Source: Bdellovibrionales bacterium | GTDB lineage: Bacteria > Bdellovibrionota > Bdellovibrionia > Bdellovibrionales > DASUEL01 | Direction of reading: 5' to 3' | Length of the DNA stretch: 34,430 nucleotides | NCBI GenBank assembly: GCA_050250255.1 | Contig: JBFWOZ010000030.1 | Span: 1 to 34,430, forward strand | In this document: piece after piece, positions 726 through 27,403 of the stretch | Numbering within the stretch: the first letter of the stretch is position 1 | Layout: every line of letters begins with the position of its first letter | Notes under the pieces: model-generated | Told to the model about the DNA's origin: nothing | The model's input: the letters and a program-made list of their open reading frames with translations, nothing else | Databases searched by the model: none | Program-made: the position numbers and the translations under genes

Positions 726-801
726 GGATAAAAGGCATATTAGCTTAAAGCCCAAGGTATTCAAGTGTTTCAAAGGACATTTTTAGAAAAGGGATCCCTC
801 T

Positions 802-1569
802 GTGGTAACGGCACATATGACAACAAAAACTCGATGGATTTTGCTGGCTCTTCCTCTTTGTGGAGCCTTGATTGGGGCGGTTTGTGGAATTCTCTCCCCT
901 AAACATGAGCTGTGGGCTTTTGATGTTCTTATGCCTATAATTCCAAAAATCTCTTACCAAGAAGATCGAAAAATTTGGAAACCGACGACTCTTCTCTCCC
1001 CATTCGAATTTGCAAGCATCATTAAAAATCAATTTTCTAAAACTCAAACTTCTCAAGATCCTTATGTTTCCAAAGTTTATTGGAATGCGGTTCACAGAGA
1101 TGCTTATTTGCAAATCACGGTTCGCGCTCCACAACAGGAAGCCGCAAAGACACTCATCGAAAAAATCATCGCCTACATGAATGAAAAATACGATGGAGAA
1201 TCACAGAGAGCCTTTGACCGACATAAAAAAGCTTTAGAAAAGCACACACTCTTTCGTGATCAGCTAGAAAAAAGAATTCGCGCTCTCGGAGGCACAGAAG
1301 GAAGCTCGCCTCTCGCCGGAGCCGTGGCGGAACTTCTCGCATCAAGACTTGATGAGCTCAATGGGAAAATCGAATTCGAAACAGAAGCTATTAGTGTTGA
1401 AGGTAGCCCAGTTTTCCGTCTCTTAGGTCCCGAAGAGGGCGTGTATTCTGGACGCTATCCCAATCTTCTTCTTTTGATTTTTGTAGGTCTTGTTTTGGGT
1501 TTTTGCTGTGATCTCTTATATATCATTTTTACTTCTCGTAAGAACTCTGAGGGAGGGTTAGCCCAATGA
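802..1569 (+). CDS. Wzz-like polysaccharide chain-length determinant / co-polymerase
   Basis: N- and C-terminal TM helices flank a periplasmic coiled coil (LEKHTLFRDQLEKRIRAL...LDELNGKIE). Pro precedes the C-terminal TM, which carries GLVLG. Glycan-cluster context. Confidence 0.6.
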   Translation: MVTAHMTTKTRWILLALPLCGALIGAVCGILSPKHELWAFDVLMPIIPKISYQEDRKIWKPTTLLSPFEFASIIKNQFSKTQTSQDPYVSKVYWNAVHRDAYLQITVRAPQQEAAKTLIEKIIAYMNEKYDGESQRAFDRHKKALEKHTLFRDQLEKRIRALGGTEGSSPLAGAVAELLASRLDELNGKIEFETEAISVEGSPVFRLLGPEEGVYSGRYPNLLLLIFVGLVLGFCCDLLYIIFTSRKNSEGGLAQ

Positions 1570-2531
1570 TGCCTCTTTTCGAACAAAAAACTTCCATTGT
1601 TCCGCTGTCCTCTTTTTTTGCGCTCGGCAAATCAGATCTTCCACTCACAGAGGAACAAAAAAAATTAGTCCACCAACTCAACGAACGTGTGAGTTCGGGG
1701 CAATTAAAAGTGGAGCAAGCTCGTTGTCTTTGCGGATCCGACACTTTCGAACTTGTGGCACAGGTGGATTGCCATGGAATTTACTCCCCAACTCAGCTTT
1801 GCAAGAGCTGTGGGATTATGGTCTCATCCCCACGCCTTACAGAAAAGGGTTATGCCGAATTTTATGGGCAGGATCTCTATCGTAGAATTTACGAGGTCGA
1901 TCACCACAAAGAAGCCCAGCGCAAAATGTCCAATCCTAATAAGGAAATTTTTGAGCAGGTGAACCGACAGCATCCAGTCCATTCAAAGACAGAAGTTTTA
2001 GAAATTGGCTCTGGTGGCGGCTGGAACCTCATCCCTTTCAAAAATGCAGGGGCAGAAGTCACAGGTTTAGATTATAGCCAAGACTTAGTGAAACTCGGAA
2101 CGGCCGCAGGAATGACAATGCTTCAAGGTGGGCTCGAGCAACTTTCAAAAAAATACGACGTCATTATTTTGAATCACGTCCTGGAGCATTTTCTAGATCC
2201 AATTACAGAACTTAAAAAAATCATGACTCACTTAAAACCAGATGGGGTATTTTATATTGCAGTTCCGAATTTGCTCAGGTTTAGCAGATCGCAAATCCAA
2301 AACGCTCATACTTATTATTTTACTCCACGCACGTTTCGCCATTTAGGGAAATTAGTGGGCCTTAAAGAATTAGATTTTGGTGTCGCTGAAAATTTTCATA
2401 TGTATGCGATTTATACCCATTCCAACAAGTCCATTGCCACCGCCAAAATTCCTTCGGACTACCGACTCATGAAGCGAACTTTACGTTTTTATTATTTAAA
2501 GCAAAAAGTGAAAGCTTTTCTGAAGCGCTAG
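1566..2531 (+). CDS. Class I SAM-dependent methyltransferase with N-terminal Cys (Zn-ribbon-like) motifs
   Basis: VLEIGSGGG (motif I), YDVIILNHVLEHFLDP, LKPDGVFYIAVP, plus CLCG...CKSCG. ATGA overlap with the upstream gene. Confidence 0.85.
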   Translation: MMPLFEQKTSIVPLSSFFALGKSDLPLTEEQKKLVHQLNERVSSGQLKVEQARCLCGSDTFELVAQVDCHGIYSPTQLCKSCGIMVSSPRLTEKGYAEFYGQDLYRRIYEVDHHKEAQRKMSNPNKEIFEQVNRQHPVHSKTEVLEIGSGGGWNLIPFKNAGAEVTGLDYSQDLVKLGTAAGMTMLQGGLEQLSKKYDVIILNHVLEHFLDPITELKKIMTHLKPDGVFYIAVPNLLRFSRSQIQNAHTYYFTPRTFRHLGKLVGLKELDFGVAENFHMYAIYTHSNKSIATAKIPSDYRLMKRTLRFYYLKQKVKAFLKR

Positions 2532-3196
2532 TTCGGGAAATCTTTTTTAAACTGTGCCGGCACACCTACGTAGACTCCAGGCCTTTCGACATTACGGATA
2601 AATGTGCTTCCTGCGCCCAAAATCACTTCGTTCCCGATCTTCAAATTGGGAATTGTGGCGCTACCAATACCCATAAAAACTAAGTCTCCAAGAGTCACAC
2701 GCCCTGCGACTGAAGAATTTGGGCCCAAGTGACTATGGGAACCAAGAATACTCTCGTGCTCAAAGACGGAGCCACTGTTAAGAATGTTATTGCTCCCAAT
2801 CTTACAAAGTGGACCTACAAACGTATTTTCTAAAATAATGTTACCATCACCCAATTGAACTTCTTGGCAAAGAGTTGCCGTGATCGCGATGTGATTGGGA
2901 AAAAGATAGCCCTGATTTTTCAATTGGGCATAGAGGGCTTTTCTTTTCTGATTATCCCCAATAGCGATAAAAATATTTTTGATTTTAAGTTGTTCGAGAG
3001 TTTTTAAAAGATCAGAAGATGACAAGACCGGTATTCCCAATACTTTTTCATCTTTATTTAGAACTGGGAGATGAGCAATATCCACAATGTGCTGAATTTG
3101 AAATTCATTTTTTCGTAAGAGGCTCGACGCCACAGATCGAGCATGTCCACCCGCTCCAACAATTACACATTTTTGCATCATAGAACTATTTTCCAT
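2528..3196 (-). CDS. NeuD/PglD-family sugar acetyltransferase (hexapeptide repeat)
   Basis: IVGAGGHARSV, IAIGDNQKRK, left-handed beta-helix repeats and C-terminal YVGVPA. Confidence 0.9.
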   Translation of the reverse strand: MENSSMMQKCVIVGAGGHARSVASSLLRKNEFQIQHIVDIAHLPVLNKDEKVLGIPVLSSSDLLKTLEQLKIKNIFIAIGDNQKRKALYAQLKNQGYLFPNHIAITATLCQEVQLGDGNIILENTFVGPLCKIGSNNILNSGSVFEHESILGSHSHLGPNSSVAGRVTLGDLVFMGIGSATIPNLKIGNEVILGAGSTFIRNVERPGVYVGVPAQFKKDFPN

Positions 3197-3211
3197 ATTT
3201 TTCTCGATTGA

Positions 3212-4012
3212 TCAAAGCCACTCAGAGCCTGACACTCGATAGCGTTCCGGGAGTTCGTCGGTAAACCGCTCCTCTTTTTTTACAATCCAATTGAAATAGA
3301 GGATGTGCCAAAGAGCCGCCACTCCATCTTTCCAGGAGATCTTTTTCCCCTGAAGGTAATTGCGCGGGTAATAGCTGATCGGATATTCCAGAATCCGCAC
3401 GCGAAGTCTTGCCACGTGAGCTGTGAACTCGACTTCAAAGCCGAAACGTGGACTATGAAGCACGAGATTTTTAAGAATCTCCGTACGACAAGCTTTGTAA
3501 CAAGTCTCCATGTCGGTAAGGTAAAGGCCACTAAGAAGATTGCTTAGTAAAGTGAGGAACCGATTCACAAAGTAATGATAGGTACGGTGAACCTGAAGCG
3601 CGTTTTTTTTAAAGCGGCTTCCATAAACGATGTCGGCTTTTTCTTCTACGATTGCGTTGACGAGTTGTGGGATTTCATTCGGGTCGTATTCAAAGTCGGC
3701 GTCTTGGACGATCGCGATTGTGCCTGAGCAAAGGTCTATGGCTTTTTGAATGGCCGAACCTTTACCGGCATTTTTTGGTAACTGCTCAAAGAGGATTTCA
3801 ATATTTTTAGTCCGAAGACGCTCCATGTTCTGATCTATGAACTCCTGGATCAGCTGCGGAGAATGGTCCTTTGAGCAATCATCAACAAAGATCATTTCGC
3901 AGGGAAGTCCCCAGGGAACCTCCACTAAAGTTTCGCAGAATTTCTGAATATTACGCTCTTCGTTATATACAGGAATTAATAACGAAAGTTTATGCGCCTT
4001 CTTTGTCGTCAT
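3212..4012 (-). CDS. GT2 glycosyltransferase, polyprenol-phosphate glycosyltransferase (DPM1/GtrB-like)
   Basis: LIPVYNEE, VDDCSKD, NAGKGSA, QDADFEYDP, TDMETCYK, FGFEVE, GKKISWKDG. Start trimmed to ATG 4012 (MTTKKAHK) because the longer ORF overlaps the divergent gene. Confidence 0.9.
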   Translation of the reverse strand: MTTKKAHKLSLLIPVYNEERNIQKFCETLVEVPWGLPCEMIFVDDCSKDHSPQLIQEFIDQNMERLRTKNIEILFEQLPKNAGKGSAIQKAIDLCSGTIAIVQDADFEYDPNEIPQLVNAIVEEKADIVYGSRFKKNALQVHRTYHYFVNRFLTLLSNLLSGLYLTDMETCYKACRTEILKNLVLHSPRFGFEVEFTAHVARLRVRILEYPISYYPRNYLQGKKISWKDGVAALWHILYFNWIVKKEERFTDELPERYRVSGSEWL

Positions 4013-4072
4013 GTGAAACCACAATAGCGTTTTCTTAGTGCGAGATCTACTCAAAAGAGATAGGTTCTGACT

Positions 4073-5092
4073 ATGATTCGTATTGGCGTTATCGGCCTGG
4101 GTTTTGGCCGTCATGTACATATCCCGGCGTTGAAATTGATTCCTCAGGCGCAGCTCGTGGCCGTGTCTGCACGAACGGCTCAAAGTGCCGAGGCGGTCGC
4201 CGCGAGCGAAAAGGTTCAGGCCTTTACCGATCCGCTGGAACTCATCGCTTCACCAGACGTGGACGCGGTAATTTTGGCGGTACCCCCCAATGCGCAGCCG
4301 GATTTGATTCGTCAGTGCATACAAAAGAAAAAACATGTCTTTCTAGAAAAGCCTGTCGGCGGTGGTACCGCAGAGGCTATGAAGTTGTATCAAGAGATGC
4401 AAAGGTCGTCACTCATACACATGATCGACTTTGAATTCTGCGATCTCCCCGCTTGGAAAAGCTTCGCGACAGAACTTCCTTCCCTTGGTGAGTTACGACA
4501 AGTCAATGTGTCGTGGAATTCCGAAACCGTTTCGCAAAAAAACTATGCACTCCAAAAAACAAATTCCTGGAAAATTGATCTCACACAAGGCGGGGGCACG
4601 CTTAATAATTTAGGAAGCCACGCCCTTTATTATCTCGAACATTTTTTTGGCCCTATGAAATCTCTCTTGTGCTCTCTCGAGAGCGGAAGCTGGCCGACAG
4701 ATTCGACAATGAGAATGTTGGTAGAGTGGCCGAAATTTGTAGGACAAGTCGTGATTGCGACCAACTGCCCAGGAGGAAACGGCCACCGCATCGAAGTCCA
4801 CGGCAGCGAAGCAAGTCTCCAACTTGATAACTCCACCGCCGACTACATGAGCGACTTCCGTCTCACAAAAACCACACGCGGAAGTATCCGCACAGACCTC
4901 ACACCTCCCGAACCCCCAAGCACTCACAAAGACGGCCGCGTCCAAGCCGTTCACCGCCTCCTCACCCGCTGGATCGAAGGCATCAAAAATAACACCCAAG
5001 TCTCCCCCAACCTCGCCCACGGCGCCCGAGTCGAACACCTCATCGACCAATGCCGCCTCTCCCACCAATCCCGTTCCTGGCAAGCCCAATAA
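4073..5092 (+). CDS. Gfo/Idh/MocA family oxidoreductase
   Basis: IGVIGLGFG Rossmann motif, KHVFLEKP, GGGTLNNLGSH. Confidence 0.9.
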   Translation: MIRIGVIGLGFGRHVHIPALKLIPQAQLVAVSARTAQSAEAVAASEKVQAFTDPLELIASPDVDAVILAVPPNAQPDLIRQCIQKKKHVFLEKPVGGGTAEAMKLYQEMQRSSLIHMIDFEFCDLPAWKSFATELPSLGELRQVNVSWNSETVSQKNYALQKTNSWKIDLTQGGGTLNNLGSHALYYLEHFFGPMKSLLCSLESGSWPTDSTMRMLVEWPKFVGQVVIATNCPGGNGHRIEVHGSEASLQLDNSTADYMSDFRLTKTTRGSIRTDLTPPEPPSTHKDGRVQAVHRLLTRWIEGIKNNTQVSPNLAHGARVEHLIDQCRLSHQSRSWQAQ

Positions 5093-5181
5093 AAGGTGCC
5101 AGTGTCATTTTTCTGGCTACATTGCTTCATCAAAATGGACGCAACGTAGCCAGAAAAATGACACTGGCACCTTTTATTGGG
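5085..5181. repeat. REPIN-like long hairpin element, copy 1
   Basis: Perfect 36-bp inverted repeat (5085-5120 / 5146-5181) plus an inner TTGC/GCAA pair and loop TTCATCAAAATGGAC. Homologous to 27316-27403. Lies between convergent genes. Confidence 0.85.
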
Positions 5182-6628
5182 AGACCCAGTTGCGGGAGGC
5201 GGATTGGGCTTCGGGGAAGAAGTAGCCAAACGAGAAGCCGCCGCGGGAGTAGACGATTTCTTTTGTTTGGAAGTTGGTGGCGCCGGCATCGTGCACGACG
5301 TGGTTCCATTGGTCGGTCGACATGGAAGATGTGTTGACGAAAAGTCGAAAGGTGATGCGGCTTGAGAGGAAGTATAAATAACCAAATTCCGACTGCCAGC
5401 CCAGGAGACCGCGAGTGTCGTTCTTTGATCCGTCCCAAGTCACATGACTTATTGCTACGGAAGGCACAACCTCCGCATAAATCAATCCACCAGGGGTTTG
5501 TACTCCCACTTGAGGGCCCACTCCAAATAAAAAATGATACCAATCAAAGCGTTTATGTTCGATAGCGTTGTACAAATTGTTTTTGAATCGCAGTCGTTTG
5601 TAGTTGGCATCGGCACTCGATACAAAACCGTAATGAAATCTCCAATGGCCACGGCTTTGTGAGGCTTTTAAATTTTTGATGGAGATGTTGCTCAAATAAC
5701 TAAAGGGATTTCCTTCATGAATTTCTTCAGAAGAATATCCCGTCAGATCATCTTTTACGGATGAAACCCCTTGCCCCACGCTCAGACCAAGAGAGTTTGG
5801 CATCAGGAGCACCACTTGCCTCCCAATGTGCTCAAAAGAATCTTCACAAAAATGTTTAAATTTGGTTTTTGGAATCTGCAGAGACCAAGCCGTATTTTCG
5901 TCCGTGTACATATCAACAACGGATCCCTCCACCTTCAAAGCCTCAGGCAGGTCACTCACCACGGTTTCTAAAATATGCGTCGGTTTGACCTTCGATTCGC
6001 TCGAACTGTGTAGAGCTGCATACAAACTTTCTCTTTGTTTTACAGATAAACTTTCTTCTTCGTAACCATGACGACGAAACATGCTTAGACTTTTAAAATA
6101 AGGCTCTACGAAAACGTTTTTATATTTTCGATGGATTTCTTTTTCGAGTTCTTTGGCAATCTCATCTCCCAGGAGACGCCCCACTCCCTTTGGAGGAGCT
6201 ATCACTACTCGCCTCATACGAGTTGCAAATAAAGGTTCCGATCTTTTTTCGCCCCCTAAAGCAATTCGAGGAAGTGCTTCGTAATTCCAAGCCGCTTGAG
6301 TGTACATGTCTATACTCCAACCCACAGGGATCATAGGCCAAAACCAGACGAATAAAAAGTTTCCGGCGAAACTATCTCCCCAGCGATATTTAGTTTCTAA
6401 GTCGAGAGTAATATCTGGCCTTGAAGGGAATTTAATAAGAAGCGACTTCTGCTTAGCTCTTGGAATTTGAATAAAAGTGGGCGTTTTATCTAAAAGCTCA
6501 CTACCCATGTAAACTTCCGCGCCCGGCGGGTCAGTTACCACTTTTAAAGTCTGGTACTGCCCTTGAAAAGTCGAGCACGAGATCAGTCCCATTAAAAGAA
6601 AGGAACATTTCAAAAAACGGCTTATCAT
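5174..6628 (-). CDS. Putative lipoprotein with N-terminal PEGA domain and C-terminal beta-strand-rich (possible OM barrel) region
   Basis: Lipobox-like LMGLISC and PEGA signature LKVVTDPPGAEVYMG...KTP. Alternating aromatic/Gly strands end in GGFSFGYFF. ATG 6628 overlaps the upstream TGA. Confidence 0.6.
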   Translation of the reverse strand: MISRFLKCSFLLMGLISCSTFQGQYQTLKVVTDPPGAEVYMGSELLDKTPTFIQIPRAKQKSLLIKFPSRPDITLDLETKYRWGDSFAGNFLFVWFWPMIPVGWSIDMYTQAAWNYEALPRIALGGEKRSEPLFATRMRRVVIAPPKGVGRLLGDEIAKELEKEIHRKYKNVFVEPYFKSLSMFRRHGYEEESLSVKQRESLYAALHSSSESKVKPTHILETVVSDLPEALKVEGSVVDMYTDENTAWSLQIPKTKFKHFCEDSFEHIGRQVVLLMPNSLGLSVGQGVSSVKDDLTGYSSEEIHEGNPFSYLSNISIKNLKASQSRGHWRFHYGFVSSADANYKRLRFKNNLYNAIEHKRFDWYHFLFGVGPQVGVQTPGGLIYAEVVPSVAISHVTWDGSKNDTRGLLGWQSEFGYLYFLSSRITFRLFVNTSSMSTDQWNHVVHDAGATNFQTKEIVYSRGGFSFGYFFPEAQSASRNWVSQ

Positions 6629-8202
6629 TGCAAACACCATGGAGGAACATTCGTCCCGGTATCAATCACGGCTACTTCGTTAGGAAGTCCAAAAACCGAA
6701 TAAGAATGGACTCTTACCGGAGGAAGATCTTGCCCTTCTCGAAGATTCTTTTGAAGTGTGATCTCTTTCCCAAAAACTTTTTTCGGTTTAATCAAGAATT
6801 GTGGTTTAGCCCCGTCTTCATACACTCGCGGGAATTGCGCCATGATCCGTTCTAATAAAAGCCCGCGATCCGCCCCTGCCTTCTGCAAAGCTTTTTCAAT
6901 ACAAGCTGGCTCAAACACAAAAATGTCGCGACCATAACCTGCAGAAATATTGTAAGGACTTATGCCTTCTTGTTCGAGAGACTCGGCGAGCTTCCACCGA
7001 GCCGACGTTGTTTCCAAGTTGTAAAGATTGGTGAGCAGGCTCACAAAAAGCACGGGGCAAAGATAAAACCATTTTTCTCCAAGTAACGAAGATGGCCGAG
7101 CGGCTCTCGCAAAACAAAAAACAAAGGGAAGGCTTAGCACGATAGAATAACGTACATCTTGCACGCCACGAAAGGCGTTGAAGGCACTTAGCACAAACAC
7201 ACCGAAGAGAGTACCGTAGAGCAAAGCAAACTGAGAGAAGGAATAAGCTCTCATGAGTTGCCATACTGGGTAGAGGCCCCATACACCCGCACTCACGATC
7301 GCCGCTCCCACTACGGGAGGGAGATAACCTGTAAAGAGAACCCCAACCGCCAAAATTTCAGGACTCACTTTGAGTAAAAGTACGAGTAAAAAAAGATGCA
7401 GAGGTAAAAGCACTCGCGCTGCTTTTAAAGTTTGAGAAGTCCATGGCACAAAGGGAAGTAAAAAAAGTCCAATAGAAAGAAGAAGCTGCAGAAAAGTAAA
7501 AGATGCTTTCATGATTTGAAACGAAAGATCTTGTGTGAAGTGATGGATGAGCCAAGCAATCCCCTCACTCTGCAAGATCGAAGGTGGAAAAAAGCGATAC
7601 ACCGCTAAACCAATGAGGCTTCCCACAACGAGCGTGAGCCCTACTCTCTTTTTCCCAGCAACTAATAATGCTAAACCCCACCCAAACGGCAAAGCTAAGA
7701 AAGACTGATACTGGATTCCCGTGAGAACAATCCCTAGTATCATAACAAAATATTTAAAAAAGTTTTGTCGTGAACTAGAAAGCACCTGTTCCGTGAGCAC
7801 CCAAAGCAAAGCGATCAAGCAAGCGGTATACACGTCTGTCAAAAAGCTAGCCCCGTACTGCACCCACACCGGGAAAAGAAAATAGCTTGCGATCAAAAAA
7901 ATAGAAAAACGAGTTCGTCTCCACACGCTTACGATCAAAATCCAAAACAAACTCCACGTAAGAAAGGTCAAGAGAGCGAGTGGTGAGACCTGAGGCAAAA
8001 GACCCACAAGGCTCGCCCCTAAAAGCGATTGTGTCCACGTACCGGCCCAATTGAGTGGGTGAGAAGCCCACTTCCCTTGAGCTAAATCCATCACGAACCG
8101 AGCGTAAACGGCGTCATCCTGTGAAAACGAAGTTCTCCATGGCTGAAGTATAGCCGTGCAGAGGAGAAAAAGTAGGAGGGCAAAAAGTTTTTGATTCTTC
8201 AT
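6625..8202 (-). CDS. GT-C fold integral membrane glycosyltransferase (ArnT/PMT-like)
   Basis: More than 10 TM helices. Acidic DD motif in the first loop (FSQDDAVY), then SFLTDVY and DVRY, and a C-terminal soluble domain. Start set at ATG 8202 (ATGA overlap with the GT4 stop). Confidence 0.65.
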   Translation of the reverse strand: MKNQKLFALLLFLLCTAILQPWRTSFSQDDAVYARFVMDLAQGKWASHPLNWAGTWTQSLLGASLVGLLPQVSPLALLTFLTWSLFWILIVSVWRRTRFSIFLIASYFLFPVWVQYGASFLTDVYTACLIALLWVLTEQVLSSSRQNFFKYFVMILGIVLTGIQYQSFLALPFGWGLALLVAGKKRVGLTLVVGSLIGLAVYRFFPPSILQSEGIAWLIHHFTQDLSFQIMKASFTFLQLLLSIGLFLLPFVPWTSQTLKAARVLLPLHLFLLVLLLKVSPEILAVGVLFTGYLPPVVGAAIVSAGVWGLYPVWQLMRAYSFSQFALLYGTLFGVFVLSAFNAFRGVQDVRYSIVLSLPFVFCFARAARPSSLLGEKWFYLCPVLFVSLLTNLYNLETTSARWKLAESLEQEGISPYNISAGYGRDIFVFEPACIEKALQKAGADRGLLLERIMAQFPRVYEDGAKPQFLIKPKKVFGKEITLQKNLREGQDLPPVRVHSYSVFGLPNEVAVIDTGTNVPPWCLQ

Positions 8203-9458
8203 GATTGATTGAGGGTTTGGAAAAAGGAGTAAACTTGTTTCGCTTGCAAGGCTTCGTTCATAGCTAGGCCAGCATGACTCGCACGAAACGCCTGGCCTTT
8301 TTGGGTTTTTAAAAAAGAAGCCCACTTCTCCGCCGTATCAAAGACCGTGAGGAGAGGAGAGGATTGAAGTTTGGGATCTAAACGCTCGACTGCTTTATGA
8401 TTCGCGAGCACAGGAACTCCCGAACCCAGAGCCTCCAAGATTTTCACTCTCACCCCGGCGGAGGTAAGATCCGGCACTAACAAGAAAGAAAGTTTCGCCC
8501 ACCACTCTTCCGTGTTTTCCACGAAACCATTTAATTTTACAAAGTCCAAAGGAGCCGCGAGCTCTTGAACTCGCTCAGGAAATTTCCCCACTTGAGAGAT
8601 CTCACCCGAAAACTGATTCTCTTTTAAAAGTGGTGCGACTCTTTCCAGAATCCATTTAAGACTTAAAAAGTTGGGTTCAAAATCTAAAGCTCCGATAAAT
8701 CCTAATACAAGCCCAGAACGAGAACCCTGCTCAGCGAAGACGGCCGAACGCTTGTGAAACAACTCTTCAGACATCGTTGGCCCCACAACTCGCTGTTTGG
8801 GAGCTTGAGAATTTCTTTTTGAATATTCACGTAAATCCGCATCGCTGATCTGCCAAATCTCATCAACGAATGTTCCAAGTTTGATTTCATTTTGAAAAAG
8901 TCGGTTAGACGTCACTTGATGAACAAAATTTTCAGGAGGACTACTCTGCTTCGCTCTTAAGGCAAAAAGATCACTTTCTAAATTATGAAAATGAACAATC
9001 TGCTTGCGAGCTTTCTTTACAGAACTCTTCAACCAACTGTAAGAAAAACTGTAGTGGTAAATTTCGATATCGACTGGCCCAAGTTGCTCACGCAAATCAT
9101 CGGACGGATCATAATAAAAAAGTTCAGGTGGCGTGAGGTCCGACATCACCGCTCTTAAAACGCGCTGCAATCGGCTTGGGGTAGATACGGATTCTTCAGA
9201 AATCAAAAAACCCATCCACTCTTTTTGTGTGCCCGAAAGCACGTTCCCCTGAGAAAAACTTGTGATGCGAAAATTTTGAAATTCCGCTGGCGAAGCTCGA
9301 AGATGTTTTTGAATTTCGTAAGGCGAAGTTTTCCAACTCACGACTTCAACCGCATGTCCAAAATCCCGAAGCGCATGCGCTTGATTGAGCATGACCTGCC
9401 AAGCCGCCTCTCGAAGAGGGAATGGGAAAAAGGGACAAAATAAACGCACATTCGCCAT
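8199..9458 (-). CDS. GT4 family glycosyltransferase
   Basis: HFHNLES, GFIGALDFEPN, GFVE, GVRVKILEALGSGVPV. Confidence 0.85.
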   Translation of the reverse strand: MANVRLFCPFFPFPLREAAWQVMLNQAHALRDFGHAVEVVSWKTSPYEIQKHLRASPAEFQNFRITSFSQGNVLSGTQKEWMGFLISEESVSTPSRLQRVLRAVMSDLTPPELFYYDPSDDLREQLGPVDIEIYHYSFSYSWLKSSVKKARKQIVHFHNLESDLFALRAKQSSPPENFVHQVTSNRLFQNEIKLGTFVDEIWQISDADLREYSKRNSQAPKQRVVGPTMSEELFHKRSAVFAEQGSRSGLVLGFIGALDFEPNFLSLKWILERVAPLLKENQFSGEISQVGKFPERVQELAAPLDFVKLNGFVENTEEWWAKLSFLLVPDLTSAGVRVKILEALGSGVPVLANHKAVERLDPKLQSSPLLTVFDTAEKWASFLKTQKGQAFRASHAGLAMNEALQAKQVYSFFQTLNQS

Positions 9459-9516
9459 GAAAAGAGAACATCATGGCCTACGGGAAAGATCAAGAATTGG
9501 GACTTAAGAAAACTCT

Positions 9517-11865
9517 TTAATGCTCCTCAGGGTATTCAGGATCCACTGTGGGTGCGCTATCCTGATATGTAGGAGGACTTGCCGGCGGAGCATCTGCACT
9601 TGCACTCCCCGTCCAATAAATTTGCAGATCCGCATCGTCGACAGACATATCAATGTAGAGAGTCGGAGGCACTCCATTCCCCCCTACTGTGAGCGTATAA
9701 GGAGAAGGAAAAGCGGGCACAATTTGAGTTGTAGGATGTGAGCCTCCTAACTCGGGGCCTAGATCTTTTCCATGCTTCGGTCCAATATTATAAGTGGCGG
9801 GATTAAATGGAACTGTCGGCATCAAGCGGGCATTTACGTTTACAAGGGATCGACCATGCCGATGTATATAAACATCTAAACGAATACTATAACTCTGATA
9901 TGGAGATCGATCAGGTGGCGCCATATGAAAGGCATTCCATGGATCTATGCTACAAGATCGACTATTTCCATGCATAGCACAGATAAAGGGCCCCATTCTA
10001 GGACCTGTCCAAGGGTCAGGGGGCGGCCTTGCTGCACAAGGCGGAGGTGTTCCATCAGAGCATAAACATGACGGAAGAGTGGGATCCGTAATACAAGTAG
10101 GACAATTATTAAATCCGGGCCCACAGGCATCAGGCTCACCACAAGAATTTGCAGCATACTCATCGCAATCCATCGTTGTTAAATCCACACTGGCGCAGTC
10201 ACATCCGGGAGAAGAAGGACCTACAGATTTTTTACCAGCGGTTCCGATCCCGCATACAGCTCCACACTGCCCTGGCACTGGCTGTCCCCAAGCGACACTC
10301 GAGGGATCAGGAGCTCCCGCACAACTGGGCTGTGTTCCTGTTCCGCAATTAGCACCACACTGCCCCGTCACCACTTGCCCACAAGGAACCCGCGATAAAT
10401 CAATGCCGGCACAGCTCGGCCCCTTGGTTCCTCCGCAAACATTTCTTCCGCAGTCGTCCACAAAATTTGTTCCTACACAAATATTGGCTGCCACAGCAGG
10501 ATCACAAAATGAGTGCGTCCCAGGCTCTGGGCAGTGACCATTTCCGCAATCATCATAGGGAACAACCCCAATGCCTCGAGAAAGCAGTGGCGGCATTGCA
10601 GGGTTGGTGCGTGTGTAATCAAAAGGAAGTGTGTCAGGATACGCATTCGGACAGTAAGTATTTAACGGTGGACACGTCGGTGTATGCACCATAAAGGTCG
10701 CCGAGCTTTCCGCCGATTCATTTCCATCGGCATCAACCGCTTTTATTTTATAATGGTGAGTTTGTGTTCCGGTATCAGGCATACCCATCATCGCCATCTG
10801 ACCCTGCATCGGCATATTGTAAGTCATTGATGTCGAATTCGGCGTCATCGCAAGAGTTCCCTGAACAGGCATATCGGGACAATTGTAGAAATGTCCCGCA
10901 GGGTCTGGCGGCTCAGCAGCTCCATCTTTTCGACATAAGAGAGCGACACCCGGCTCATTAGATTGAACATCCATATAGATGTTCTGCCATTCTGTTCCCG
11001 GGCCTCCAGCTGCCGTAATCTGCTGAACCGTTCGCAAGTCTGAACATCGGTTGGCGGTAATGGCTGTACCAAAACCGTTTCGCACATTCGCTACCGTTAA
11101 AGTTGGCGCTGATTTATTAATTGCATTAGCGATATCAATTTTTGCATTACAACTATTATTTTGCTCTCCAGGACCTGTGCATTGAAATTCTGCGGTCACT
11201 CGAATTTCCATCGTTGTTGTACCTGAAGTCGATGAACTGCCACAGGCTACAGCGGCATCTTTAATATAAAGTTTGAAATTGTTCGTGAAACTTTGGAATT
11301 GAAGATTCGCACTCTTCGGCAGCAGGTTCGCAAGCGCAGTTGGGGACAAGGTCATTCCACTGTCCAAACAAATCCCATTTGTGCGATAAGTATTGTAAAC
11401 CGTCTGAGCCCACGTAAAACTTCCACGAATATTTTGGTAGGTTTTGTAACTTGTAGGATCAACATATGGCTGACTATCAATATTCGTAAAAAGCGGAAAG
11501 CGGTCACACACGGGAGTACGCCCACCAACAGTATTACAAAAAGGATCGTTATCACTTTGACTTGTGCTCAACGGCGTAGCGGCGCTTGGAAGCCAAGTAC
11601 GAACTACAAGTGCATTATCAATGCTTTTAATATTATCGATGATATTTGTAACGGCGGATTGGCAAGTCGACACTCCACTTAAGCGAATGGAAGATATGAG
11701 AGAACCGGTAATCAATTTGAAGATCATGACAGACACCACACCCACCAGTGCGACGCTGATCAAAACTTCAATAATACCAAACCCACGATTATTGCGTTTT
11801 GGTCTCCCCACCCTCTTACATCCCATACCTCTATGAGACCATAATTTCTTAAGAATTAAAAGCAC
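9517..11865 (-). CDS. Large type IV pilin/pseudopilin-like protein with Cys-rich repeats
   Basis: Class III signal NNRG|FGIIEVLISVALVGVV (Glu at +5). Cys/Gly/Pro-rich repeat tract. Start is either GTG 11865 or ATG 11826. Confidence 0.75.
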   Translation of the reverse strand: MLLILKKLWSHRGMGCKRVGRPKRNNRGFGIIEVLISVALVGVVSVMIFKLITGSLISSIRLSGVSTCQSAVTNIIDNIKSIDNALVVRTWLPSAATPLSTSQSDNDPFCNTVGGRTPVCDRFPLFTNIDSQPYVDPTSYKTYQNIRGSFTWAQTVYNTYRTNGICLDSGMTLSPTALANLLPKSANLQFQSFTNNFKLYIKDAAVACGSSSTSGTTTMEIRVTAEFQCTGPGEQNNSCNAKIDIANAINKSAPTLTVANVRNGFGTAITANRCSDLRTVQQITAAGGPGTEWQNIYMDVQSNEPGVALLCRKDGAAEPPDPAGHFYNCPDMPVQGTLAMTPNSTSMTYNMPMQGQMAMMGMPDTGTQTHHYKIKAVDADGNESAESSATFMVHTPTCPPLNTYCPNAYPDTLPFDYTRTNPAMPPLLSRGIGVVPYDDCGNGHCPEPGTHSFCDPAVAANICVGTNFVDDCGRNVCGGTKGPSCAGIDLSRVPCGQVVTGQCGANCGTGTQPSCAGAPDPSSVAWGQPVPGQCGAVCGIGTAGKKSVGPSSPGCDCASVDLTTMDCDEYAANSCGEPDACGPGFNNCPTCITDPTLPSCLCSDGTPPPCAARPPPDPWTGPRMGPFICAMHGNSRSCSIDPWNAFHMAPPDRSPYQSYSIRLDVYIHRHGRSLVNVNARLMPTVPFNPATYNIGPKHGKDLGPELGGSHPTTQIVPAFPSPYTLTVGGNGVPPTLYIDMSVDDADLQIYWTGSASADAPPASPPTYQDSAPTVDPEYPEEH
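10100..10660 (-). repeat. About five degenerate ~30-aa Cys-rich protein repeats (C...C-G...D/Q-C-G-x-x-C-G-x-G-T)
   Basis: DDCGNGHCPEPGT / DDCGRNVCGGT / GQCGANCGTGT / GQCGAVCGIGT / NSCGEPDACGPG. Boundaries are approximate. Confidence 0.75.
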
Positions 11866-11897
11866 TTACCTTATAAGTGACTAGACTAATTAACACC

Positions 11898-11940
11898 CCT
11901 CTCAATTTGAGAAAACTTCCGCATTTCTCAAATTGAGACA
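11898..11940. promoter_or_regulatory. Tandem pair of TCTCA-N3-TGAGA palindromes (putative operator) upstream of the pilin-like gene
   Basis: CCTCTCAATTTGAGAAA (11898-11914) and TTTCTCAAATTGAGACA (11924-11940), 26 bp apart. No U-tract. Confidence 0.55.
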
Positions 11941-11951
11941 GGGAGTATAGC

Positions 11952-12335
11952 TTAGTCTAAACGGGTTTTGATTTTGTAGGTCGCTTTAGATCGGCAGATG
12001 CTGCCTTCGGTTTCGGAAATACAAGTGGGCTGACCACAGCTCACATGAATAATCTTGTTATCTTTATTCTCATCACGAAATTCTTTTTTCCAAGTGGCAC
12101 AAGCCTTTTTCCACTCTTCGCGGGCTTCCTTTTTGAGTGGCATGTGCTCACCGTCTATCGTATCTTCGCCTTTTTCTACTTCCCACTGAGATTCAGCAGA
12201 TTTTTTGCTTTTTTCGCCCTTTGTGATTTCAATCGTCGTTGTTTGCGACCCGTCCGGCTTCACATCACGCACGTCGACTGTTTGGGCCTGGGCGAAACTC
12301 ACAAGAGCGAGCGAAACTAAAAAAGAGGACAACAT
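11952..12335 (-). CDS. Small secreted hypothetical protein
   Basis: Signal peptide ending AQA, AAGGAG RBS, four Cys. Confidence 0.8.
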   Translation of the reverse strand: MLSSFLVSLALVSFAQAQTVDVRDVKPDGSQTTTIEITKGEKSKKSAESQWEVEKGEDTIDGEHMPLKKEAREEWKKACATWKKEFRDENKDNKIIHVSCGQPTCISETEGSICRSKATYKIKTRLD

Positions 12336-12350
12336 AGACTTCTCCTTGAT

Positions 12351-13286
12351 TTAAGAGTTTTTCTTTAAAAAAAGTTCTTTTTCGTTTTTTGTATACTGAT
12401 GTTTTAAAAATTCACGGGCATCTGCAAAACCAGCTCTCAAATATTTCAAACGATCCTTGAGATCCGCCACATTCCCGGCTCTTCGTAAGGGTAAAAGAAT
12501 TTCTTTGGCGACCACCGCCGTCATTCTTGGCCATTGCACAAACCAGGGGATTGAAAAATTATGTTGCCAAAAATAAAGATTATTTCTCGTAAAATAAAAA
12601 GCGTAATGACGTGCGGGAATGCGTGATTTCATGCTGAGCACGGTATGAAAAGCCTTCGATTTGGGTTCCACCCAAAGATCCCAGCCTTTTTGCTGAAGCT
12701 TCACACAGAGTTCGGTCTCTTCATAATACATGCGGTAGCGCGAAGGTAATCCGCCGACCTCTTCGTAAGCTTCTCGTCTCGCGAGCAGCGAACTTCCCGG
12801 AATATAAGACCACTTCGGAAGAACTCCGCCCTGCTCCCAAGGAATCATAGCCGTTGCTCCAAGCATTGGACTCACCACCCCTCGAGCGCCCCATACTTTT
12901 TTGCTGCGTCCGTGATGCACGGTAGGTCCGATAGCACCCACTCGCGGCTGTACGCTAAGCACTTGAACGAGTTTTTCGAGTGTGCCTTCTTCAATTTCCA
13001 AATCAGAATTGAGCATCCAGTAGGCGTCGGCTTCAAAATCTTTAAAGGCCTCAATGCCCGCAATCAGCCCGCTCGCGTATCCATGATTTTCTGGCACACG
13101 AAGAAGTTCCACGCCTGCTTTTTTTTGTTCTGATGAAAGTGTCACACGCTCATCGTTCCCGTTATCAACGTGTACGACTTTTAGTTCAAAAAGTCCCTGG
13201 TGGAATTGCATGAGCTGAAGCGAGAGAAGTTCGGCTTCTTTCTGTGTTCTAAAATCAATGATGAGAGCCAAAACCTTATGAATCAT
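12351..13286 (-). CDS. GT2 glycosyltransferase (WbbL/rhamnosyltransferase-like)
   Basis: VDNG, ENHGYASG, LNSDLE, GSSLL, MYYEETELC, YYF-like YFTRNN. Confidence 0.85.
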   Translation of the reverse strand: MIHKVLALIIDFRTQKEAELLSLQLMQFHQGLFELKVVHVDNGNDERVTLSSEQKKAGVELLRVPENHGYASGLIAGIEAFKDFEADAYWMLNSDLEIEEGTLEKLVQVLSVQPRVGAIGPTVHHGRSKKVWGARGVVSPMLGATAMIPWEQGGVLPKWSYIPGSSLLARREAYEEVGGLPSRYRMYYEETELCVKLQQKGWDLWVEPKSKAFHTVLSMKSRIPARHYAFYFTRNNLYFWQHNFSIPWFVQWPRMTAVVAKEILLPLRRAGNVADLKDRLKYLRAGFADAREFLKHQYTKNEKELFLKKNS

Positions 13287-13300
13287 TTTGTCCGCGTCCC

Positions 13301-15400
13301 TTAAGTAGGAACAACCTCGGGGGCCATTCGTGATGGCCTTCGCATTGGCAAGTGCCGCGATAAATACTCTTTATAAGTTTTTGGAATGTACGCCATATTG
13401 TACGAGTTATCGTAGTAATGGAGTCGTTCCGCACGGTACAAATCAGAAAGCACAAAAGGTTTCCCCTCTTCCACTTTCTTAAAGTAACGCTCGGCCACTT
13501 TTGCTGCCAAGATCAAACCATCAAGAAGATTCAAGTAATAATCTGTGAGTAAGAGATTGATCTGCTTAAACTCTTCATGACCTTCATAAGCATATTGGAA
13601 AAACGCTTCCAATTCTTTTCGACCAATATTCGGGATGATTTCAAATTTGGACGTGTGCTCTTTAGTATCAAAAACTCTCGCTCGGTCAGCGATGAACTTC
13701 GCATAGGCTTCAAGGTCATATTTGTTTTCACCGTAGAGGAAAAGCACCATCAAATCTTTTCCGTTACGAAAGTGTGCAAAGAAGTTCGAAGTCTGAGAAA
13801 ACGCAATTTGTCTGGCCGCCGTGATGTCATCAAAGCACGAAAGACCACTCTCGGTTACAAACTGGTAAGAGCGATTGTCTGTCGTGTCGGTCGCAAAACC
13901 CGCTTTCACCGAATAGTCGCCAAGTGGCGTTCCGGGAAATGGTGAGTAAAGGGAGTTCCAGTAATAATCTTCTTTCGCAAAGTTCGACCTACAAACGAGT
14001 TCCAAACATGTGAGAGATTCTTGGATTGGATCTTTGTAGAAACTTTCTAATTTTAATTCTAAGCCTGCTTTTTTGTCTTCTGCAGGTTCAAGAACCGGCA
14101 AACCCACAATCATTTGCGTACGTAAAGGAATGTCGACCGCCTTCACGTTTTTCACGGCATCAAGAATCACATCGTTATTTTCGTTCCGGCGTAGTAAATT
14201 CTTACGCACCTGAGGATCGCCCGACTCAATCGCCATAGAAATTCCGGCAACAAGACCTGACTTAGAAATAATCTCAATTCTTTTTTGTCCGCTCGTTCCG
14301 GCAAGCATGGCAGGACGCGCTTGAATGTAAAAAGGAATCTTGATCTGTTCGCCCCACTTCACACGGAGGTCTTCCCACCAAGTCATGTTGTTAAGTGAGA
14401 TATCCGCTTGATCAAAAACAGCGGCCGTTTTTGTGTTATAAAATTTGTCGAGAGCAATAATATCGTGGCCCTCTTTCAAAACCGTCTCGAGCGGACGATC
14501 CTGAATAATGCTTGGTGGAACAATGTTGGTCCCTTTGTAAGCATCTTTTAAGTTATTCGTGAGAGAACTCACGTAACAGTAAGAACACGAGTACGCGCAC
14601 CCAAGAGCTGTCAAAATCGATTTGATCGGGCTTGTGGCGTAACCTTTCGTATCGACTGTCGCTTCGTAAAAACCTTTACGATCTAAACGTGGAAGATTCG
14701 CGTAGGGCATGGGATCGTGATAAATGCCTGGCTGAAAAAGTCCTAGCAAAATATCACGGAACAAATTAATGCCTTTTCCACGTACGACGAACTCCGCTCC
14801 GCGGTCCCAAGATTCTTTAAAATTATAATTGTTGTAGTGACCACCGATGATGACTGGAGCGTAGAGAAGTTTGTTGCCACTCCAAATAGGGCCACGAGCT
14901 TCACGCACCATATTTTTTAAAAGCGTGTCGGCTTCTTCAAAACTCAATTTCTTGCCGGTGATTCTTGCGGCCGCATCGATCTTGTATTGGCGTAACCAAT
15001 CAAAAACGAAATCCGTTAAGCCCGTGTAAAGGCTGATGCCGAGCCAATGAGCGCCCGTTTTTTCAAGCATTTCGTTTGTCGTCGCAATGTTCTGGGAGCC
15101 CGTAAGGATGTAATCGGCTTTTCCGCCCATATCGCGCACGACTCCACCAAGCGACATGAGCGTGATGTTTTCGATTTCGCTCATATCATGGCCCATAAGG
15201 AGCACATGAGACTTAAAGTCAGGACGTTCGGATTTTAAAAATTGGTGATAAGCATCCCAGTCGGTCGTCACATGCTCTGGCAAATACATGGCGTTGAGGA
15301 ATTTACCCTGATCTTTTAATGTTGGAAGCTGAAACGTTCTTGGAAAACCTTGATAGTTCACCAACAAATCTTTTTTGGTGGGCAGAGCGATATCTGACAC
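13301..15400 (-). CDS. Radical SAM protein with N-terminal B12-binding-like domain and long C-terminal extension
   Basis: GCAYSCSYC (CxxxCxxC), AIESG, MIVGLP, PFPGTPL. N-terminal GISLYT / IIGGHY / FVVRGKG resemble cobalamin-binding domain motifs. GTG 15400 has a GGGGAG RBS; TTG 15424 is an alternative start. Confidence 0.8.
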   Translation of the reverse strand: MSDIALPTKKDLLVNYQGFPRTFQLPTLKDQGKFLNAMYLPEHVTTDWDAYHQFLKSERPDFKSHVLLMGHDMSEIENITLMSLGGVVRDMGGKADYILTGSQNIATTNEMLEKTGAHWLGISLYTGLTDFVFDWLRQYKIDAAARITGKKLSFEEADTLLKNMVREARGPIWSGNKLLYAPVIIGGHYNNYNFKESWDRGAEFVVRGKGINLFRDILLGLFQPGIYHDPMPYANLPRLDRKGFYEATVDTKGYATSPIKSILTALGCAYSCSYCYVSSLTNNLKDAYKGTNIVPPSIIQDRPLETVLKEGHDIIALDKFYNTKTAAVFDQADISLNNMTWWEDLRVKWGEQIKIPFYIQARPAMLAGTSGQKRIEIISKSGLVAGISMAIESGDPQVRKNLLRRNENNDVILDAVKNVKAVDIPLRTQMIVGLPVLEPAEDKKAGLELKLESFYKDPIQESLTCLELVCRSNFAKEDYYWNSLYSPFPGTPLGDYSVKAGFATDTTDNRSYQFVTESGLSCFDDITAARQIAFSQTSNFFAHFRNGKDLMVLFLYGENKYDLEAYAKFIADRARVFDTKEHTSKFEIIPNIGRKELEAFFQYAYEGHEEFKQINLLLTDYYLNLLDGLILAAKVAERYFKKVEEGKPFVLSDLYRAERLHYYDNSYNMAYIPKTYKEYLSRHLPMRRPSRMAPEVVPT

Positions 15401-15544
15401 GTGAGACTCCCCGTTTTGTTTCAAACAATATCCCTGTAAACAACACCCCCAGTCAAGCCTGGGTACCGAGTCAACCCCACATTCTGTAGGCTTTCTTTCC
15501 TTAGGGGCAAACCCTTTACTCCTCAGCTAGCAGCCCTCAAAGAA

Positions 15545-16642
15545 ATGATCTATACTTTCGTTATGTCGCCTAAAATTCTGTTCGTAAAACTTGGGGCTTT
15601 GGGAGATTTGAGCTTTGCCCTCCCCTCTGCCGAACTCTTCAAAAAAGTGTACCCTCAAGGGCATTTTACCTGGGCTGTGGGCCAATCGGTGCAGAGTTAT
15701 CTTCAGGGTCGGCCGGAGATCGATCGCCTGGTGATTGTGGATGATAAAAATTTGTTTTCGTCCAATCCTCTTAGGCGCGTTCAAGCCTGCCGTGATTTTA
15801 TTGCGCGCTTAGAGCCCGCATATGATCTCCTTGTCATTGCTCATAGAAACTTAGCCTACTCACTCCTTTTAAAAAGTTTCGTCAAAGGACCTATCTTTCA
15901 ACTCGCACGCGAAGAACACCCTTTCTTAGAAAAATTTGGAATCCACAGCATCATCGCAACTCCTCTTGAAACCCATGAAAGCGTCGGGATTGGGAATACT
16001 CTTCTCGCCGCGATGAGATCTCTAAAACCTACTAGCCCTCTTCCTTTGTGGAACGGAAAAATTCAAAGGGCCCAAGGATTTTCAGCGGGAAAATCGCCCA
16101 TTGTCTCAAATTTGCCTTCCGATTATCTCGTTTTACAAATGGGCGGAGCGGGTAATTTAAAAACAGAATTTCGTTTAAAAAGTTGGGCGCACTGGAAAGA
16201 TTTGGTGAAACTTCTGTTAGAAAAAACAGAACAAAATTTAGTTTTTATCGGAGCACCAAACGAAAAAACGGAAATCGAAGAGATTCTCTCTCAGTTCCCA
16301 ACAAATTCGCGGATCCATAACCTCACCGGAAAAACAAACTTTCACGAACTTGAGCACATTTTATCTCAAGCAAAAGGTGTCGTCGGCATTGATTCAGGCC
16401 CACTTCACATCGCCGACGCTCTTCGCGTTCCCACGCTCGGTATTTTCGGCCCTTCAAGCACAAAATCCTGGGGTTTTCTCGGCGAGCGCTCGCAAGCCCT
16501 CAAGCACTCCGTCCCCTGCTCCCCTTGCTATAAAGACGACGGCATTTTCCCCGAGTGCGCCTACCAACACCGCTGCATGACTGGCCTCAAACCCGAAGTG
16601 GTGCTTGAACAGATCGTGAAGAATTTTACTAAAAACACCTAG
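15545..16642 (+). CDS. GT9 (LPS heptosyltransferase-like) glycosyltransferase
   Basis: KLGALGDL, NLTGKT, GIDSGPLHIADAL, IFGPSS, CSPC...C...C tail. Confidence 0.9.
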   Translation: MIYTFVMSPKILFVKLGALGDLSFALPSAELFKKVYPQGHFTWAVGQSVQSYLQGRPEIDRLVIVDDKNLFSSNPLRRVQACRDFIARLEPAYDLLVIAHRNLAYSLLLKSFVKGPIFQLAREEHPFLEKFGIHSIIATPLETHESVGIGNTLLAAMRSLKPTSPLPLWNGKIQRAQGFSAGKSPIVSNLPSDYLVLQMGGAGNLKTEFRLKSWAHWKDLVKLLLEKTEQNLVFIGAPNEKTEIEEILSQFPTNSRIHNLTGKTNFHELEHILSQAKGVVGIDSGPLHIADALRVPTLGIFGPSSTKSWGFLGERSQALKHSVPCSPCYKDDGIFPECAYQHRCMTGLKPEVVLEQIVKNFTKNT

Positions 16643-16664
16643 TAAAAAATCAATTCATACTGCG

Positions 16665-16758
16665 TTTCTAGGATACAGGAATCCGGGAACACGGTATCCT
16701 GGAATAACTCCTGAATCCCTGTGTTCTTGGATTCCGGTATCCCAGAAAACCTGTATTA
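16665..16758. repeat. Imperfect 30-bp inverted repeat built of 8-nt tandem units
   Basis: 16665-16694 pairs with 16719-16748 at 25/30. Units: ctgaatcc/ctgtgttc/ttggattc/cggtatcc/cagaaaac/ctgtatta. Confidence 0.65.
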
Positions 16759-16823
16759 ATATAAAAAACATTTCATTTCTTCTTAAAAGCAAAGTTATTT
16801 TTAGTCATCCATCCATGGTCTTT

Positions 16824-16917
16824 ACTTTTCAAAATTCACTCATCCATGCGCTCAGCTACCTCACGAGCCTCGCGCCTTCGGCGCACCTCATGAGGATTGG
16901 GCCAAGTTTTGAAAAGT
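16824..16917 (-). other. Nested stem-loop element directly 3' of the HNH gene (REP-like element or structured RNA)
   Basis: Outer 11-bp perfect IR ACTTTTCAAAA/TTTTGAAAAGT. Inner 9-bp stem 16859-16867/16887-16895. Apical GCGCC-GAA-GGCGC on the minus strand. Confidence 0.6.
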
Positions 16918-16918
16918 T

Positions 16919-27293: not shown

Positions 27294-27321
27294 TTATCGG
27301 CCTAACCCGATCTTCCATTTA
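27294..27321 (-). promoter_or_regulatory. Putative sigma28 (FliA) promoter of the RDD-rhomboid operon
   Basis: TAAA-N16-GCCGATAA on the minus strand (consensus TAAA-N15-GCCGATAA). The -10 box ends 6 nt before ATG 27287. Confidence 0.6.
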
Positions 27322-27403
27322 GGTGCCAGGTTCCTTTTCCGGGTCACGCCGCTTCATGAAATGGACGCGGCGTGACCCGGAAAAGGAACCTGGCACCTAA
27401 ATG
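27316..27403. repeat. REPIN-like long hairpin element, copy 2
   Basis: Perfect 37-bp inverted repeat (27316-27352 / 27367-27403) with loop TTCATGAAATGGAC. Homologous to 5085-5181. Confidence 0.85.

Follow-up and report, generated by a model that had tools for sequence, protein, structure and literature searches.

Genes that end at the outer end of a TIRtron-type repeat carry C-ending codons in their last stretch

Results

Two convergent genes with C-ending tails meet at a paired inverted repeat

The DNA analyzed here (the window) is a stretch of 34,430 nucleotides, contig JBFWOZ010000030.1 of the Bdellovibrionales assembly GCA_050250255.1 (genome G000 in this work), in which two convergent genes, one for an oxidoreductase and one for a lipoprotein-like protein, end at a hairpin formed by two arms of a dispersed repeat (copy 1). 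The last part of each gene, which we refer to as its halo, is rich in codons ending in C (C3, fraction of codons ending in C). The features at this locus are as follows.

4073..5092, + strand: Gfo/Idh/MocA oxidoreductase gene, ending in a TAA stop (5090-5092) directly before the left repeat arm
4760..5089, + strand: left halo, the last 110 codons of the oxidoreductase gene; C3 0.65 vs 0.24 in the rest of the gene
5085..5181, no strand: whole hairpin copy 1, an arm doublet; pairing continues for a few bases within each stop region, and the RNA form folds with about -64 kcal/mol
5093..5120, + strand: left repeat arm, outer AAGGT end toward the left gene; same sequence as the arm that flanks the Y1/HUH gene C1:52114-52737 of G000
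5146..5173, - strand: right repeat arm, outer end toward the right gene
5174..6640, - strand: convergent lipoprotein-like gene; PEGA match weak (E 0.03), start at either 6592 or 6640
5177..5374, - strand: right halo, the last 66 codons of the convergent gene; C3 0.67 vs 0.18 elsewhere in the gene

The initial annotation of this locus had reported about 67 of 103 and about 44 of 66 codons ending in C in the two tails, and our recount gave exactly these numbers. By third base, the 103 codons at 4781-5089 (+) comprise 67 C, 23 A, 10 T, and 3 G, and the three G-ending codons are, as had been said, obligate ones (ATG, TGG, and TGG). The upstream part of the same gene, described as rich in G-ending codons, has 63 of them and 59 C-ending ones in its first 236 codons. 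At 5177-5374 (-), G ends 6 of the 66 codons, and only 74 of the other 422 codons of that gene end in C. Unbiased change points fell 110 codons (oxidoreductase) and 66 codons (convergent gene) before the stops. When we scored third-base excess with amino acid composition held fixed (z), the best 50-codon windows of the two genes, at z 8.7 and 7.9, ranked first and second among the 2,932 genes called in G000 with a simple hexamer model, and the pair ranked first among 399 convergent pairs. The PEGA label given earlier to the convergent gene has a match behind it, but one below the Pfam cut-off. Neither window gene has a close relative at the DNA level among 40 relatives; the best metagenome match had 34% identity, and plasmid matches were all <60%.

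The two convergent proteins also share similar C termini, SRSWQAQ (5066-5092, +) and SRNWVSQ (5174-5200, -), and 17 of 27 bases of these flanks agree, which ties for the highest flank similarity among 47 doublets. This may be chance or an old inverted copy; both flanks are C-rich.

The C-ending tails follow the repeat across the genome

Gene ends were compared across G000 for genes of at least 100 codons with a called downstream neighbor. Ends facing the repeat had a mean z of 1.90 (n = 80), compared with 0.05 for ends without the element (n = 2,424), 0.05 for ends with a terminator-like hairpin (n = 85), and 0.09 for element-free convergent ends (n = 742). A z above 4.5 was seen in 10 of the 80 facing ends and in 5 of 2,509 others (Fisher p 1e-12), and the genome-wide C3 profile approaching stop codons was flat (0.205-0.233). 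The flat profile and the near-zero z of element-free ends rule out a general effect of 3' ends or of convergent ends. The initial annotation had centered the effect on the element and had named equally C-rich element-free convergent ends as the counter-case; this case did not arise.

The C excess fell with distance from the repeat, from +0.19 at 0-45 nt to +0.11 at 45-90 nt and +0.05 at 90-150 nt, with none left by 400 nt. The reach of 200-300 bp first described is thus not typical (about 100-150 nt is), and copy 1 is an extreme case. The symmetry seen at copy 1 did not extend to other copies either: left and right flanks of convergent loci were uncorrelated (rho -0.03, n = 30), and left/right correlation was discarded as a measure of element age. 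In four-fold boxes, C rose from 0.24 to 0.41 with losses in T, G, and A, whereas purine boxes moved toward A. The T-to-C shift was equal in every flanking-base context, which rules out loss of one dinucleotide such as CT, and the four-fold pyrimidine share rose from 0.58 to 0.67 (0.83 at copy 1), which rules out transitions alone. There is also a weak amino acid shift: Pro, His, and Gln together made up 12.8% of halo tails vs 10.8% of tails, the bodies of the same genes having about 11.7%.

Tandem facing ends were shifted as well (z 1.82, n = 24), as was serS before a tRNA gene, so that antisense read-through from a convergent partner is not needed. Single arms were as effective as doublets, and a long hairpin is therefore not needed. 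Hairpin structure as the cause was rejected on this ground and because intrinsic terminators, the repeat family at 16661 (below), and Escherichia coli REPs (repetitive extragenic palindromes) lack the halo. Other long hairpins of G000, outside the AAGGT families, had a weaker C halo whichever way the gene points (0.047 and 0.051). Further, facing genes were shifted on the leading strand (+0.23, n = 38) and on the lagging strand (+0.16, n = 23), which bears out the earlier statement that replication skew is not the cause and excludes this candidate.

Two further hairpins of the window had been discussed in the initial annotation.

16661..16760, no strand: hairpin of a different repeat family; the preceding gene (15545-16642) has a C-rich tail, z 5.5, and 6 sister copies have none
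27316..27403, no strand: copy 2, a doublet from a sister subfamily (tandem context); the facing gene (27422-28060) has a weak halo, z 1.4

The effect at copy 2 had been called weak, and it is (z 1.4 in the facing gene, -1.1 in the gene pointing away). The C-rich tail before the 16661 hairpin, which had been likened to that at copy 1, is real but belongs to another family, in which it is the sole such tail among 7 copies. The surroundings (800-17800) form a glycosylation cluster with glycosyltransferases of families 1, 2, and 9, a methyltransferase, a PglD-like acetyltransferase, and a radical SAM gene; an HNH gene lies at 16919-17758.

The repeat brackets genes for Y1/HUH transposases

We found 128 arms of the repeat at 76 loci of G000, as single and paired copies dispersed through the genome. 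They fall into five subfamilies with a common outer AAGGT end, and outer ends of subfamilies read AAGGTGCC, AGGTACGG, AGGTCTCC, and AGGTGCGC. An intact 207-amino acid Y1/HUH gene (C1:52114-52737) stands between inverted repeats identical to the copy 1 arm, and three sister subfamilies flank a Y1/HUH gene or fragment of their own (genes on C8 and C16, a fragment on C60). All three intact proteins carry NHYH and YVYRNP or YIYRNP motifs; Y1_Tnp scored over the cut-off in two of the three. The proteins match E. coli TnpA-REP (PDB 4ER8) with E 1.4e-8, and reach 50-68 bits with the NCBIfam RAYT model, whose cut-off is 80. A GTAG tag is present in subfamilies F1 and F3, absent from F2 and F4, and on the opposite strand in F5. 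The GGGGWSAS motif of most described terminal inverted repeats (TIRs) was not seen at the outer ends of the G000 repeats, and a C-terminal helix-turn-helix (Bac_DnaA_C, HTH_23, or HTH_28) gave no Pfam match up to E 0.1 in any of the three proteins. An Rfam search returned 8 matches, all to miRNA hairpin models and all below thresholds. Copy 1 is a doublet of these inverted repeats without the Y1/HUH (TIRYT-type) transposase gene that they enclose elsewhere in G000, and it is of the TIRtron type.

Two more groups of Y1/HUH genes, four copies each, lack AAGGT arms directly on both sides (group one at C57:8858-9604, C56:3-725, C20:39144-39896, and C3:99815-100546; group two on C48, C21, C14, and C26, all in G000). 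The C57 and C20 genes both have a GGGACGGAG-type hairpin upstream. A second hairpin family (G000 C16:43739-43858, C9:74818-74939, C33:15666-16029, C28:11863-11983, and others) has a conserved core within 20-25-bp inverted arms that differ locus by locus.

Orthologues that lack the repeat lack the C-ending tail

Because no close relatives of the window genes were found, we turned to other genes in genus g31 of the same order. Tail minus body C3 was +0.177 for serS with the repeat (11 genomes) and +0.007 without it (20 genomes, p 1e-5), +0.115 (8) and -0.028 (19) for acrB (p 4e-4), and +0.142 (7) and +0.032 (23) for selO (p 0.01), where the genomes are kin and hence the p values do not come from independent samples. 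The comparison with orthologues lacking the element, which the initial annotation had put forward as a check, thus found the halo missing there. Presence of the repeat was set by eye, so that G114, G156, and G162 are placed differently than by the regular expression, and 30 of 36 and 30 of 41 matches were taken in. Repeat-bearing lineages were scattered across the orthologue trees, and different subfamilies swap at the same sites among close genomes.

At loci L239-L318 of G066, G046, G058, and G082, repeat families interchange at the same stop codons, and the A-run of the repeat often provides the TAA stop. Downstream of serS (L152 and L209-L238), an inner GCGTCA-like arm end is kept before a tRNA promoter in nearly all genomes, even where the outer end and the halo are lost.

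The effect is polar and extends to non-coding DNA

We compared 20 convergent pairs at single arms; some are orthologues that occur more than once, and some have a degenerate second arm. In this set the outer-end gene was shifted by +0.23 and the inner-end gene by +0.10, the outer one being the stronger in 13 of 20 (p 0.02). Where the gene at the outer end points away from the repeat, the adjoining 30 non-coding nt contained more C (0.286 vs 0.210 expected) and less T (0.226 vs 0.279); the C excess was seen at 26 of 36 loci (p 0.0003), counted after removal of 5 ambiguous rows and of near-duplicates. The halo also persisted at sites with an intrinsic terminator in front of the repeat, after the gene (L239, L240, and L257), although at one such site the repeat stands directly at the stop in another strain.

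The halo recurs in three phyla and in a family without detectable Rho

We measured C-G above that of the gene's own body at 80 of at least 129 scanned loci. Facing ends were shifted in 7 of 8 cases in Bdellovibrionota, 7 of 8 in Planctomycetota, and 11 of 11 in Actinomycetota, vs 6 of 11, 8 of 20, and 6 of 17 other ends, respectively. The halo thus recurs in three phyla; in Acidobacteriota and Elusimicrobiota, 1 of 2 and 0 of 1 facing ends were shifted.

Among the actinomycetes, genome G190 carries about 110 copies of the repeat. In a sample of 15 of about 100 pattern loci and 6 others, C exceeded G in 23 of 24 facing ends (C +0.156, G -0.146), compared with C +0.009 and G -0.056 in 34 other ends, at least 3 of which face variant copies (p 2e-5). 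Rho scored over the cut-off in none of the 26 genomes of this family (G190 and G206-G230, completeness not given), and MutL was not detected in G190, the one genome searched for it; nick-directed MutSL repair is not needed if G190 truly lacks MutL. At E. coli K-12 REPs, the shift went the other way: 44 REP-facing ends, one of them counted twice, had C -0.063 and G +0.050, whereas the 57 other ends had -0.010 and -0.012. These ends were drawn from 28 of the first 30 pattern loci and a further 50 kb (L399-L429).

Substitution rates indicate a bias in what is kept

Two independent close pairs of genomes provided 38 facing genes, in which 189 of 959 synonymous sites differ. Over these sites, selection at equilibrium predicts 141-194 differences, and added mutation alone predicts 243-309. 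The two pairs disagree: halo differences were 0.250 vs 0.167 in control tails for G176/G163, and 0.172 vs 0.181 for G066/G058. We also fitted a branch model (68 sites in three genes with 27-31 orthologues and sampled histories of gain and loss; single genes vary), in which changes toward C/A were multiplied by 1.7 and the reverse changes by 0.6. The Akaike information criterion (AIC) was 3177.7 for strand asymmetry, 3185.5 for a forward-only model, and 3187.7 for a reverse-only model. The process is therefore a bias in what is fixed or kept and not a mutation hot spot, and the plain hypermutation implied by the initial annotation does not fit these rates. Substitution rates cannot separate strand-biased repair from selection.

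In the control genes (L239-L358), synonymous divergence is lower over the last 30 codons than in the bodies (0.175 vs 0.239), at operon ends too.

Discussion

On the strand that leads into the repeat, the DNA just beyond the AAGGT end has gained C and lost G and T. We lean, if modestly, toward a DNA-level process at the outer end of the repeat as the cause of the halo. Several features together point to a sequence-specific protein, for which the cognate HUH enzyme is the obvious candidate: the halo is polar, it reaches non-coding DNA, it depends on neither hairpin length, terminators, Rho, nor replichore, and its sign is reversed in E. coli. Strand-specific nicking and re-synthesis at the repeat end is the likely form of such a process. 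E. coli TnpA-REP is described as cutting single-stranded REP DNA at C|T, leaving a 3'-OH (PMC8266576). By our proposal, the cognate enzyme would nick one strand at the AAGGT outer end, and roughly 30-300 bases of the flank would then be removed and synthesized anew with the other strand as template. If this happened again and again on one strand, C>T and A>G damage to the incoming strand would be lost, whereas the opposite strand, being exposed, would template G>A, T>C, and G>C changes that become fixed on the incoming one. Changes toward C would then rise and changes away from it fall, with the total rate little altered; the complementary pattern expected from such re-copying is the one fitted by the asymmetry model. 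Transcription into the outer end could supply the single-stranded DNA on which the enzyme acts, which would explain why the long halo is found mainly in facing genes. Since the repeats at a given site change from one close genome to the next, halo strength may reflect the time for which that site has been occupied. Sense R-loops were set aside, since by generally known chemistry they act in the wrong direction. The reading of nicking and biased re-synthesis in the initial annotation thus keeps its link to the element, and its nicking step stays conjectural here as well; its symmetry, reach, and hypermutation do not carry over.

Several observations weigh against a DNA-level process. Genes on the inner side are shifted too on average, and the make-up of the 20 single-arm rows tempers the polarity. 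The non-coding effect is absent past 30 nt. At 30-100 nt, C-G of genes pointing away is 0.03-0.07 vs 0.14-0.16 for facing genes, although the motif behind this comparison is loose and admits false arms. The mirror effect in genes pointing away is 0.030 [-0.009, 0.067] vs 0.136 in facing genes; this coding mirror is weak, at between a fifth and a half of what facing genes show, and its intervals take in zero. In this respect the initial wording, by which flanking host genes are reshaped, is not supported. Many copies of the repeat show little or no halo, and the same palindrome occurs without it in Atribacterota (3 of 6 facing ends shifted), Bacillota (1 of 3), and Alphaproteobacteria (0 of 2). 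All three other bases yield to C in four-fold boxes, which demands transversions that deamination and Pol I (DNA polymerase I) errors supply poorly. Finally, the sign of the pair test depends on the control, mutation being better by 10 AIC with control tails and selection by 44 with gene bodies, and on the branch data a selection model (AIC 3174.9) is as good as strand asymmetry or slightly better.

The main rival, which we consider unlikely, is selection on the mRNA that does not involve Rho: a poorly pairing tail, rich in C and A and poor in G and U, would be favored before a repeat at the stop codon, with ribosome release, folding of the repeat RNA, or decay control as candidate benefits. 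That the long halo is almost confined to genes transcribed toward the repeat agrees with this, as does the order C > A > T, G, which is what least pairing predicts; its three-parameter model also had the best AIC on the branch data and in one of the two pair tests. Selection of this kind leaves unexplained, however, why non-coding DNA next to genes pointing away has excess C, why outer and inner ends differ, and why halos are seen behind an intervening terminator. Nor does it account for the lack of a shift before intrinsic terminators or the 16661 family or for the opposite sign at E. coli REPs, and it would have to act on ordinary genes with a strength like that behind strong codon bias.

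Plain local hypermutation, by which T>C and G>A changes come on top of an unchanged background, through an error-prone patch (Pol I type) or through DNA that stays single-stranded for long, is improbable. For error-prone Pol I, A>G and C>T in the newly made strand are reported to far outnumber their complements (PMC3167613), a direction that fits if the new strand is the one leaving the repeat; forward rates fitted with position-matched controls were raised 1.7-3.3-fold, and the G176/G163 halos are more diverged than their control tails. The pooled differences nevertheless fall below the range that added mutation predicts, the G066/G058 halos are no more diverged than control tails, and the forward-only model is worse by about 8 AIC on the branch data.

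That the repeat inserts, or is kept, at gene ends that were already C-rich is very improbable and largely refuted: the replacement of subfamilies at the same sites in close genomes marks these sites as hot spots, and many copies lack a halo, but z above 4.5 is far rarer in element-free ends than in facing ones, and the same gene has no C-rich tail in lineages lacking the repeat.

Least credible of all is the alternative raised in the initial annotation, selection for a C-rich, G-poor Rho-loading (Rho utilization, rut) sequence upstream of the hairpin: rut sites do have this composition (PMC6061677), G000 has Rho, and some E. coli REPs are reported to be partial Rho-dependent terminators (10.64898/2026.03.23.713779), but the halo is strong in G190, whose family has no detectable Rho, and in E. 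coli the rut sites are described as lying downstream of the stem-loop (PMC6061677), with which the C-poor, G-rich REP-facing tails are in line. At copy 1, no C>G region lies downstream of the stem-loop, where read-through RNA meets G-rich sequence. Rho loading is thus unlikely as the cause of the halo.

The element belongs to a known kind. TIRtrons (Di Nocera et al., 2013, PMC3733652) are described as Y1/HUH (TIRYT) genes bracketed by inverted repeats, with dispersed single and paired repeats and NHYH and Y...NP motifs, all as in G000; they differ in the GGGGWSAS motif, the outer motif in G000 being AAGGT(G/A/C)C, although TIRs without GGGGWSAS are listed there also. TIRYT has been linked to TnpA-Y1 subclass 2.1 (Quentin et al., 2018, PMC6006769), for which a C-terminal helix-turn-helix is described that we did not detect in the G000 proteins. 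No effect on flanking codons such as that found in G000 is mentioned in the text available from these two papers. REP/REPIN sequences with their RAYT (TnpA-REP; PMC3116915, PMC8266576; PDB 4ER8) are alike in their hairpin doublets just past stop codons and in a homologous enzyme, but the GTAG tag is found on the expected strand in only two of the five G000 subfamilies, and the E. coli REP-facing tails are shifted the opposite way.

The halo itself appears to be undescribed as a footprint on host genes. Local strand asymmetries have reportedly been seen at CpG islands, and diversity is said to occur beside mobile introns. The Pol I footprint at the ColE1 origin (PMC3167613) is similar in being a site-anchored, strand-specific substitution bias that decays with distance; the halo differs from all three in that it is anchored at the end of a dispersed bacterial repeat, spans 30-300 nt, and resets host codon usage. 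The C>G regions of rut sites (PMC6061677) share with it a C-rich, G-poor strand near the transcript end, whereas the halo is found upstream, within the coding sequence, takes its polarity from the repeat, and is present without Rho. Subclass 2.1 TnpA-REP genes facing prochlorosin genes (10.1101/2020.03.09.984088) offer a case in which the same subclass is proposed to alter the end of the facing gene, but by indel diversification through recombination, with causality unproven according to the authors and no base-composition effect reported in the text available. A literature search, with most subscription journals outside its coverage, returned no codon or base shift beside REP or TIR repeats.

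More tentatively than for a DNA-level process as such, we propose that domesticated TIRYT nucleases may cut a single chromosome strand at their repeat ends frequently enough to act as site-anchored, transcription-assisted converters of that strand that rewrite the codon usage, and slightly the residues, of genes ending at their repeats, in at least three phyla and without Rho or MutL. If selection is at work instead, the halo would reflect an undescribed, Rho-independent rule for mRNA ends. If the nuclease proposal is true, the halo would be a clock, readable from the genome, of where and for how long a TIRYT enzyme has acted. The polar, quantitative footprint on host genes gives a predictable, mappable readout for asking what RAYT and TIRYT enzymes do in vivo. 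The halo also shows that a neighboring element of 30-90 bp can reset synonymous sites at gene ends, which bears on work that relies on codon bias and synonymous divergence (dS).

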